Assembly: GCF_003334315.1 (NCBI RefSeq)
Contig: NZ_QOWR01000036.1
Strand: one strand, 5' to 3'
DNA length: 46,318 nt
Source of the DNA: Escherichia coli
GTDB taxonomy: Bacteria > Pseudomonadota > Gammaproteobacteria > Enterobacterales > Enterobacteriaceae
Numbering within the stretch: position 1 is the first letter of the stretch; the number at the start of each line of letters is the position of its first letter. Positions 1,532 through 2,479 of the stretch are shown one piece after another. The translations under genes were made by a program, and so were the position numbers. The notes beneath the pieces are model-generated. The model saw only the letters and a list, made by a program, of their open reading frames with translations, was not told where the DNA came from and ran no database searches.

Positions 1532-2479
1532 ATGCCCCGCTACAAAAAAGATATCCGTAATAATTGCTTTCATCAAAATTATACTCATGACGTATTGTTC
1601 CCCGGCGCAACATTCAGAACCCGACATAATGGAGAATGCGCCATTCTTGGCCGCTCTGATGATAAATCAAGGCGAGGCTATTATGTCGTGGAATTCAAAG
1701 ACAGTGGCATCATCAAGGAAGCCTATGGCTCGCATATTAAAACTGGTTCTGTATCAGACGAAGCTTTTCCATCATCGGAGGAAGAACGACGAAAGTTACT
1801 GATGACACCAAAATATTACGACGTCGGATATATTGGTAATGGATGTCATTCAACTATTGAAAACACCCGAACACACCAAAGAACGAGAGCATTCATGCTC
1901 TGGCATAACATGCTGGCAAGGTGCTACATGACAACCAAAGGGAAGCAGTATTTTAAAGGCTACAAAGGTGTCACTGTATGCGAGCGATGGCATAACTTTC
2001 AGAACTTCTGCAATGACCTTCCAAAATTGCATGGCTACAACAAATGGAAGGATAATCCGGGAGAGTATGAGCTCGATAAGGATTACTCACATCGCCGGAT
2101 TTATTCTGCTGACACGGTGGCATTTATCAGTACAGAAGAAAATGCCAGGGAAGCTGGATTACGACGCGTTGCCATGAAGATTCCTTCCGGGCATTATCAT
2201 GAAATAAATAAAATTCGAGATGAGATATTAATGGAGGCTGAAGATGAATTAAAAAACAATCAAATTCATTATGAAGTTGTTCTTGACGGGAATATGAAAG
2301 TAATCCTGTGTGAAACTCCTTATGGTGCAGTGTTGTTCTGGCCTCTCACGAAAAAGATTCAGCGTAATTGCTACATGATTGATGGTGATGTACAGGTTTA
2401 TGTTCATTACCTGCGCTGGCTCATACTTCAGTGGGAAAACAGAAATCCCGACATAAACTGTATTGCTACAACCTGTTGA
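1532..2479 (+). CDS. hypothetical protein, 315 aa, low-GC orphan with possible phage-type DNA-binding motif
   Basis: ORF track 1532..2479; AGGAG Shine-Dalgarno 8 nt upstream; TATAAT-like box at 1418..1423; visibly AT-rich coding sequence; motif WHNMLARCY...YKGVTVCERWHNFQNF. Confidence 0.6.
   Translation: MPRYKKDIRNNCFHQNYTHDVLFPGATFRTRHNGECAILGRSDDKSRRGYYVVEFKDSGIIKEAYGSHIKTGSVSDEAFPSSEEERRKLLMTPKYYDVGYIGNGCHSTIENTRTHQRTRAFMLWHNMLARCYMTTKGKQYFKGYKGVTVCERWHNFQNFCNDLPKLHGYNKWKDNPGEYELDKDYSHRRIYSADTVAFISTEENAREAGLRRVAMKIPSGHYHEINKIRDEILMEAEDELKNNQIHYEVVLDGNMKVILCETPYGAVLFWPLTKKIQRNCYMIDGDVQVYVHYLRWLILQWENRNPDINCIATTC

Follow-up and report, generated by a model that had tools for sequence, protein, structure and literature searches.

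ORF315 of Escherichia coli is the only universally conserved protein-coding gene of a small element inserted at Xer sites

The locus studied here lies at the left end of a 46,318-nucleotide stretch of an Escherichia coli genome (contig NZ_QOWR01000036.1, hereafter the window), where an open reading frame (ORF) of 315 codons, ORF315, is located between a fragment of the insertion sequence (IS) IS1 and the hipBA genes. This ORF had been proposed, in an original prediction made from the nucleotide sequence alone, to be horizontally acquired cargo with a phage-type motif, wedged between IS1 and hipBA. The frame was present in the ORF list as claimed, its AGGAG ribosome-binding site was confirmed 7 nt before the ATG start codon (AGGA is conserved in the alignment), and the gene is convergent with hipA (Table 1). 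The G+C content of ORF315 was 36-43% in comparison with 45-57% in hipA and the autotransporter gene, in agreement with the AT-richness attributed to it relative to flanking core genes. An IS1-truncated gene does exist upstream, although the end of IS1 is 1.08 kb away from ORF315 and not next to it. The view of ORF315 as loose cargo had to be abandoned: it is the sole conserved protein of an element of about 3.2 kb that is bounded by Xer sites and lies beside dif, and both the truncated gene and the 815-bp spacer that follows it belong to this same element.

A scan of genome contigs for ORF315 yielded five loci. The gene was carried by 95 of 5426 complete E. coli genomes (1.75%), E. coli C among them, a frequency that supports its horizontal acquisition, and in those 95 genomes it was always annotated as "hypothetical protein". 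As anticipated, K-12 has no counterpart, and homology of MG1655 to the window begins only at position 2658. Full-length orthologues with 52-98% identity were found in Escherichia, Enterobacter, Buttiauxella, Yersinia, Serratia, Kluyvera and metagenomes. Pairwise comparison with eight orthologues gave ratios of non-synonymous to synonymous substitution rates (dN/dS) of 0.05-0.24, low in all three domains of the protein; these values are approximate because dS is saturated. When checked for breakage in relatives, the reading frame was unbroken at every orthologous locus that was examined, as it was under all listed E. coli matches, and one copy in the tandem array of E. coli ET791 was shortened to 282 aa. 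As judged from these comparisons, ORF315 is a real, conserved gene under purifying selection.

Alignment with K-12 revealed that the element is inserted exactly at the single dif of that strain (L005 6751-6778), which aligns at window position 2658. The plus strand of this site reads ATTTAACATAATATACATTATGCGCACC, which we take to be dif from established knowledge of the E. coli site. Strains carrying ORF315 have a perfect dif to the left of the insert of about 3.2 kb. The right boundary, about 180 bp past the ORF315 stop codon, is a variant site, V (GGTGCGCATAA-TGTGTTGA-ACATGTTAAAT), in which the XerC arm is perfect, the central region is 8 bp long and the XerD arm has two inner mismatches; the window copy has an A at the outermost position of the XerC arm. 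The central region of V agrees with dif only on the XerC side (TGT), and the left site keeps its 6-bp spacer. The same combination of a canonical left site and a variant right site at dif was observed in E. coli, Yersinia, Serratia, Buttiauxella, Kluyvera and several metagenomic contigs, and in all loci both sites lie on the same strand, in direct orientation. Two plasmids were examined, and in each the element is bounded on the left by a 28-bp Xer site whose arms resemble those of dif and whose central region is another one (CAAAGA in pEk72-1 and TGAACC in a plasmid of Citrobacter), and on the right by V. The central region thus always travels with the XerD arm, which is the product expected if the crossover took place where XerC cleaves.

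The element is present in E. coli, Yersinia, Serratia, Kluyvera and Buttiauxella and on 41 plasmids of Citrobacter, Klebsiella, Enterobacter and Escherichia, 21 of which are predicted to be conjugative. Many E. coli genomes contain 2-5 copies. In E. coli ET791 (L004/L006; NZ_CP100906.1, about 2480500-2500000), six units separated by V are located between yneL and hipA. Five of them are 99.8-100% identical, with a period of about 3224 bp, and the sixth, beside hipA, combines different cargo with a backbone that is 98.6% identical, a structure that fits successive integrations of two element variants into a regenerated left dif. Two tandem units were found at dif in Serratia liquefaciens (L010/L011), and a Kluyvera contig spans one V to the next. 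Altogether, an element of about 3.2 kb that encodes no recombinase has ORF315 as its terminal gene and as the one protein-coding gene that is conserved universally. This element is inserted precisely at Xer sites, both those of plasmids and the chromosomal dif of at least five enterobacterial genera, and different variants of it stack in tandem at the same dif.

Two further sequence features accompany the boundaries. A palindrome whose right arm overlaps the outer XerD arm of V was kept at most junctions, and an inverted partial copy of V, designated V' (GGTTCGCATAACGGTTGAAATGTCTTGCGGCCTT), was found at a distance of 10-75 nt from the left site in every taxon (L001 ~6098-6130, L007 ~6282-6312 and L010 ~2721-2752), at the left end of the element and thus outside the window. 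When paired as a single strand, V and V' gave the same forked hairpin in six of eight taxa, with only about 5 bp of the XerD arm double-stranded. A divergent relative on a metagenomic contig (L019 306-4622) encodes an ORF that is 52% identical and has a different variant site, GGTGCGCATAA-TGTCTCG-GAATGTTGAAT, with a 7-bp central region; its spacer is interrupted by an IS, an adh_short gene separates the ORF from the site, and only a 5-bp stem is left of its palindrome. Here the basal hairpin stem AAGGC/GCCTT is replaced by GAGGC/GCCTC, which amounts to one compensatory change, and V and V' change in parallel. The existence of this relative indicates that the element family is broader than the main clade.

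Table 1. Positions of the element and its neighbours in the window
Feature	Position	Strand	Remarks
IS1 fragment	1..450	+	insB ORF at 61-438; the window begins inside it; interrupts the 119-aa gene of the element
Gene 3 remnant	451..717	+	3' part of a 119-aa predicted membrane-protein gene; truncated by IS1
Non-coding backbone region	718..1531		about 800 bp, from the cargo genes to ORF315; conserved across 11 loci
Intrinsic terminator of gene 3	730..753	+	stem of 10 bp, then a T-run; conserved in the alignment of four genera
Near-invariant block	781..813		hairpin GGCTCTCC-TGC-GGAGGGC at 793-810; four-genus alignment
Candidate LexA (SOS) box	1175..1190		CTGTATAAATAAACAG; 340 nt upstream of ORF315
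TATAAT hexamer	1418-1423		
Ribosome-binding site of ORF315	1520-1524	+	AGGAG; read from the sequence
ORF315	1532-2479	+	315 aa; ORF list
ORF315, N-terminal domain			SH3/Tudor-like
ORF315, central domain	1817..2179	+	residues 96-216; W-x2-M-x2-RCY ... ELDKD ... N module
ORF315, C-terminal alpha/beta domain	2180..2446	+	residues ~217-305; helices, 5-stranded sheet, helix
Palindrome	2634..2662		inverted repeat I6; 13-bp arms, TAAATGCCAGCAC-TTC-GTGCAGGCATTTA
Variant Xer site V	2658-2687	-	AGTGCGCATAA-TGTGTTGA-ACATGTTAAAT; attP-derived right junction; scan of window and loci
hipA	2764-4086	-	

The constant parts of the element are a left end of about 100-200 bp, a non-coding region of 783-817 bp, ORF315 and V. 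When all ORFs of at least 60 aa in eight units were listed, none besides ORF315 was conserved across taxa. The gene sets to the left of the spacer varied accordingly, encoding proteins of 134 + 110 + 119 aa, 134 + 220 aa, 359-363 aa, 311-314 + 119 aa or 92 + 227 aa. On our own reading of the translated sequences, most of these cargo proteins start with a signal-peptide-like or membrane-spanning N terminus. The variants of 220, 359 and 363 aa (L002 6228-7319, L004 10626-11288, L024 4121-5200 and L026 1645-2736) end in a domain resembling the C-terminal domain of TolA (NCBIfam tolA, E = 1e-10 to 1e-16; phrog_5772), and in the window the cargo was removed by IS1. TolA-C is the periplasmic target of the g3p protein of Ff phages and of group A colicins, which makes exclusion by a secreted decoy an idea open to testing. 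No match to recombinase families was obtained for ORF315 (Pfam, NCBIfam and PADLOC) or for eight cargo proteins (NCBIfam and PHROGs). The gene 3 remnant in the window aligns with L001 7054-7320, within an annotated coding sequence (6961-7320), and intact orthologues of 117-119 aa were found in Yersinia, Serratia and plasmid copies.

The non-coding spacer showed a mean column identity of 73% in four genera. A hidden gene in it was ruled out, as no ORF was common to the taxa and substitutions had no 3-base periodicity. Consensus folding predicted the hairpin of the near-invariant block on both strands and short hairpins on either side of an AT-rich tract; it gave only short local hairpins and no large conserved RNA structure. 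A match to RsmY RNA at 639-753, overlapping the 3' end of truncated gene 3 and its terminator, was below threshold (24.4 bits against an Rfam gathering threshold of 57, E = 0.006) and was judged to be probably due to chance. The box at 1175-1190 is the only CTGT-N8-ACAG sequence in the window, and from the established consensus we take it to be a LexA site; it was kept in eight of nine distinct non-disrupted sequences, Yersinia having CCAG, and the IS insertion of L019 lies here. With regard to the sigma70-like -10 box of the original prediction, a lone TATAAT is indeed present (Table 1), but it has no acceptable -35 element and the scan for sigma-70 promoters detected none for ORF315.

The central motifs quoted for ORF315, LWHNMLARCY and YKGVTVCERWHNFQNF, are both in its sequence and coincide with the positions at which the family is most conserved, W124, M127, R130, C131, Y132, Y144, V149, W153 and F159 being invariant or nearly so. 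Searches of Pfam (even at E <= 10), NCBIfam and PDB sequences gave no match, as had been expected of a protein outside characterised families. The sole PADLOC match was Cas7_IIId at E = 0.015, which is at chance level, and no defence-system model fits. The suspected relationship to HNH or homing-type modules of phages and mobile elements was borne out by PHROGs, in which residues 31-252 matched phrog_2081 ("HNH endonuclease", E = 9.5e-35) and related families. Moreover, homologues of residues ~12-257, corresponding to the N domain and the central module, were detected by tblastn in 816 phage records, and this region is part of a huge phage family annotated as "HNH endonuclease". Some of the phage homologues adjoin ribonucleotide reductase or thymidylate synthase genes, neighbourhoods that are classic positions of homing endonucleases. 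A profile search of 1.84 billion cluster representatives retrieved 42,398 relatives at E <= 0.001 that have in common the N-terminal and central module (profile positions ~5-186), many of them consisting of this module alone (~180 aa). A DNA-binding tail like the NUMOD of I-HmuI was present in 15 of 87 aligned relatives, and some showed an AP2-like tail when read by eye. ORF315 has neither, and its element has boundaries that follow Xer sites, so that it does not fit the pattern of a free-standing homing endonuclease gene, in which a nuclease module joined to a NUMOD/AP2-type tail would spread by cleaving sites without the gene. A profile search of PDB recovered only the I-HmuI C-terminal tail of other members, which ORF315 lacks, and Foldseek against PDB found nothing at E <= 0.001, with only weak SH3/Tudor matches for the N domain.

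The AlphaFold2 model of ORF315 is a confident one (pLDDT 89.9) and consists of three parts. In this model the central domain contains a beta-hairpin and a helix (ELDK...VAFIS...helix), in which D182-K183-D184 is invariant and N204, within the helix, is kept in at least 90% of the sequences. The C-terminal domain is confined to the enterobacterial clade. Across the 87 aligned relatives, and not in ORF315 alone, the position of the HNH catalytic His is occupied by K183; neither a catalytic His at the end of strand 1 nor a match to a curated HNH model was found. With D-K-D replacing the catalytic His, the module occupies the place of the nuclease in homing-endonuclease architectures and lacks the residue that defines HNH. 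With less certainty, ORF315 appears to derive from phage homing-endonuclease-like proteins.

In the window, homology with uninterrupted elements (L001, L014 and the last ET791 unit) starts exactly at 451, so the left part of the element is removed by IS1, whereas ORF315, the spacer and V are intact. No canonical dif was found anywhere in the window, which starts inside IS1 and leaves the left end, V' and the canonical dif outside view. A dif is to be expected just to the left of IS1 unless IS1 caused a rearrangement, which would matter for chromosome dimer resolution in this strain. The adjacency to hipA is incidental, because dif adjoins hipA in E. coli; other genera and plasmids have different neighbours next to the element and Xer sites are always present. 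A functional link between ORF315 and hipBA was consequently dropped, since other genera do not preserve the adjacency, which is set by where dif lies. Elsewhere in the window, an autotransporter gene of the ECSE_1600 family (4575-9994, minus strand) is split into ORFs of 1553 and 249 aa. In comparison with the intact 5421-nt gene of strain 210221272 it shows one gap and one mismatch in 5.6 kb, and from this alignment it is probably a frameshift pseudogene; the K-12 counterpart (yneO) is also a pseudogene. In E. coli C (L002 1-6100) a copy of ISSen4 lies between dif and the element, and IS3-family fragments, a group II intron reverse transcriptase and a DEAD/DEAH helicase gene lie to the left of dif. 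These insertions identify the neighbourhood of dif as an insertion hotspot.

The organization of the element corresponds to that of an integrative mobile element which exploits Xer (IMEX): dif and a dif-like site in direct orientation, a left site identical to dif, an empty relative with a single dif, arrays of 2-6 units, and no integrase or transposase found. As one junction regenerates dif, further elements can stack in tandem. On this comparative basis it is very probable that the element is an IMEX. Because the central region of V is 8 bp long and agrees with dif only next to the XerC arm, integration would take place by XerC-catalysed strand exchange, in the manner of VGJ-phi or cer; sites with an 8-bp central region or homology on the XerC side only, such as the attP of VGJ-phi and cer, recombine by XerC alone (PMC5357621). 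Alternatively, the element might integrate as a folded single strand, using V' as an inverted partial second site. It would shuttle between conjugative plasmids and the chromosome, its spread probably occurring through the former, and would carry variable exported-protein cargo.

Regarding ORF315, the specific role that we rank highest is a putative one in the service of the element itself, for which the chances are close to even or slightly lower. The ranking derives from its being the constant terminal gene beside the attachment site, where other IMEXs hold lysogeny factors: in those elements the gene next to attP is typically a factor of this kind, such as XafT (PMC12715192). ORF315 might then be a sequence-specific DNA-binding or nicking protein working for the element, in its integration or its maintenance. 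A possible target is the conserved palindrome/attP region adjoining the gene, where ORF315 could promote or bias Xer recombination; alternatively it could start replication of an excised circle, and the SOS response may govern its expression via the upstream LexA box. The combined explanation, an IMEX whose constant protein serves the element, we regard as somewhat better than an even proposition. A bolder version, which we consider doubtful, is that ORF315 founds a new class of IMEX factor, a domesticated homing-endonuclease-like protein that binds or nicks DNA beside the attachment site and controls XerCD or starts replication of the circle.

Several points weigh against this explanation. 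Excision, a circular form, dependence on Xer and an activity of ORF315 are all putative features read from sequence comparisons. CTX-phi and VGJ-phi integrate by XerC without a factor encoded by the element (PMC5357621), so ORF315 need not act on recombination. The promoter scan found no promoter for ORF315, and the LexA box is a predicted site only. No iterons or recognisable origin features were found, nor did the repeat search give convincing origin-like repeats. In addition, no description of the element was found in full-text literature, the coverage of which is incomplete, and it may already have been described.

Some of the same features could also be accommodated if the element were, or descended from, a single-stranded DNA replicon, that is, a filamentous-phage satellite of the CTX-phi/RS1 type integrating through the folded hairpin of V and the inverted partial V', with ORF315 as a rolling-circle initiator nickase acting from tandem copies. 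The presence of V' near the left site in all taxa, the forked hairpin in six of the eight, the CTX-phi-like tandem arrays, the LexA box and the long hairpin-containing non-coding region all suggest such an origin, as do the compensatory stem change and the parallel change of V and V' in L019. A single compensatory change is thin, however, parallel change is equally expected if both sites bind the same protein, and the XerD arm of the hairpin is only partly paired. Furthermore, a conserved motif of the HUH type is absent from ORF315 (its HYH at 219-221 is not a conserved one), the element lacks morphogenesis genes, no cargo protein matched a phage replication or morphogenesis family, and none of 50,697 phage records was similar in DNA sequence to the non-coding region. 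We consequently judge the satellite origin improbable. Equally improbable in our view is that ORF315 is passenger cargo with a function at the level of the host, for example in transcription regulation or as a nuclease-like factor directed against phages or plasmids, outside the life cycle of the element. Its membership of a nuclease-like phage family would suit such a protein, purifying selection is just as expected of useful cargo, and the unaided integration of CTX-phi and VGJ-phi-type IMEXs (PMC5357621) leaves room for it. Nevertheless, ORF315 is the one gene that never varies while the others are swapped, its position and orientation beside V are always the same, and PADLOC offered no defence system for it beyond the chance-level Cas7_IIId match.

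A very improbable explanation is that ORF315 is an active free-standing homing endonuclease that spreads through repair of the double-strand breaks it makes at empty sites near dif, the Xer boundaries being coincidental. It would account for the ribonucleotide reductase and thymidylate synthase positions of the phage relatives and for the I-HmuI-like tails of 15 of the 87 aligned ones, but ORF315 is devoid of the NUMOD and AP2 tails, and the boundaries match Xer arms to the nucleotide, in unrelated flanks and in plasmids with different central regions. Gene conversion, in turn, needs flanking homology, which is lacking between plasmid and chromosomal sites, and two element variants are stacked at one site. 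As for ORF315 being a decaying, functionless remnant, the truncation of the window element by IS1 and the shortened ET791 copy could be read in this way; the low dN/dS across genera and the intact frames in orthologous loci and listed E. coli matches refute it for the family, and we give it hardly any credence.

The dif site is essential and universally conserved, and elements exploiting it carry cholera toxin and carbapenemases. If the IMEX explanation is true, this small family, on large conjugative plasmids and in E. coli, Yersinia, Serratia and Kluyvera, would extend to Enterobacterales the Xer-mediated cassette traffic that is otherwise known mainly from Vibrio phages and Acinetobacter plasmids, and a first cellular context would be available for one member of a phage protein family of 42,000 clusters that lies outside curated domain libraries. 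The exported TolA-C-like cargo hints at protection against Tol-dependent colicins or filamentous phages. Should ORF315 turn out to be a new factor, the element would represent a fourth, SOS-inducible mechanistic type of Xer-exploiting element, through which small envelope-modifying cassettes would be shuttled between conjugative plasmids and chromosomal dif in E. coli and its relatives. E. coli C carries the element, which makes the roles of ORF315, V and the LexA box directly testable.

Known IMEXs include CTX-phi, VGJ-phi, TLC-phi, the gonococcal island and EludIMEX/EcloIMEX. Among the closest parallels are the VGJ-phi-type IMEXs of Vibrio cholerae, which also lack an integrase, have a dif-like attP matching dif only beside the XerC arm (PMC5357621), regenerate a functional dif at one junction and stack in tandem at dif. 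In contrast to VGJ-phi, the element described here is of 3.2 kb, has no phage genes, has an 8-bp instead of a 7-bp central region, resides in enterobacterial hosts and encodes a homing-endonuclease-like constant protein, its dependence on Xer being putative. It shares with CTX-phi, RS1 and TLC-phi the integration at dif, the arrays, a pair of inverted dif-like sequences that could fold into a forked hairpin, and a control region containing an SOS box, here a predicted one. It differs from this group in the poor pairing of the XerD arm of its hairpin and in that no RstA-type initiator, no RstR and no match to XafT/DUF3653 was found, ORF315 having been searched by Pfam and the cargo by NCBIfam and PHROGs instead of Pfam. 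Like V, the cer site of ColE1 has a 30-bp core and an 8-bp central region; at cer only XerC exchanges strands (PMC5357621), and the element is also found at plasmid Xer sites, of which cer is one; cer, however, resolves multimers with ArgR/PepA accessory sequences, whereas V bounds an inserted gene cassette. The pdif modules of Acinetobacter are likewise small gene modules bounded by XerC/XerD sites on plasmids and chromosomes. Their bounding sites are in inverted orientation and they are not known to have a constant protein, in contrast to the direct, same-strand sites and the constant ORF315 and ~800-bp region of the element. Phage free-standing "HNH" proteins (PHROG 2081/953/374; I-HmuI-like architecture) have an N-terminal SH3-like domain and a central module homologous to those of ORF315, which carries a clade-specific alpha/beta C-terminal domain in place of NUMOD or AP2 tails and resides in an Xer-site element and not in a phage genome. 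EcloIMEX and EludIMEX-1 of Enterobacter are also Xer-dependent integrative elements of Enterobacterales (PMC12198106; PMC5357621), set apart from the element by their descriptions as resistance islands of 25-30 kb. Apparently undescribed so far, the element is distinguished from the known IMEXs by its size of 3.2 kb, the lack of phage, secretion-system or resistance genes, a site with an 8-bp spacer, the use of both dif and plasmid Xer sites, a swappable exported-protein cargo and a constant protein of putative descent from homing-endonuclease-like phage proteins.

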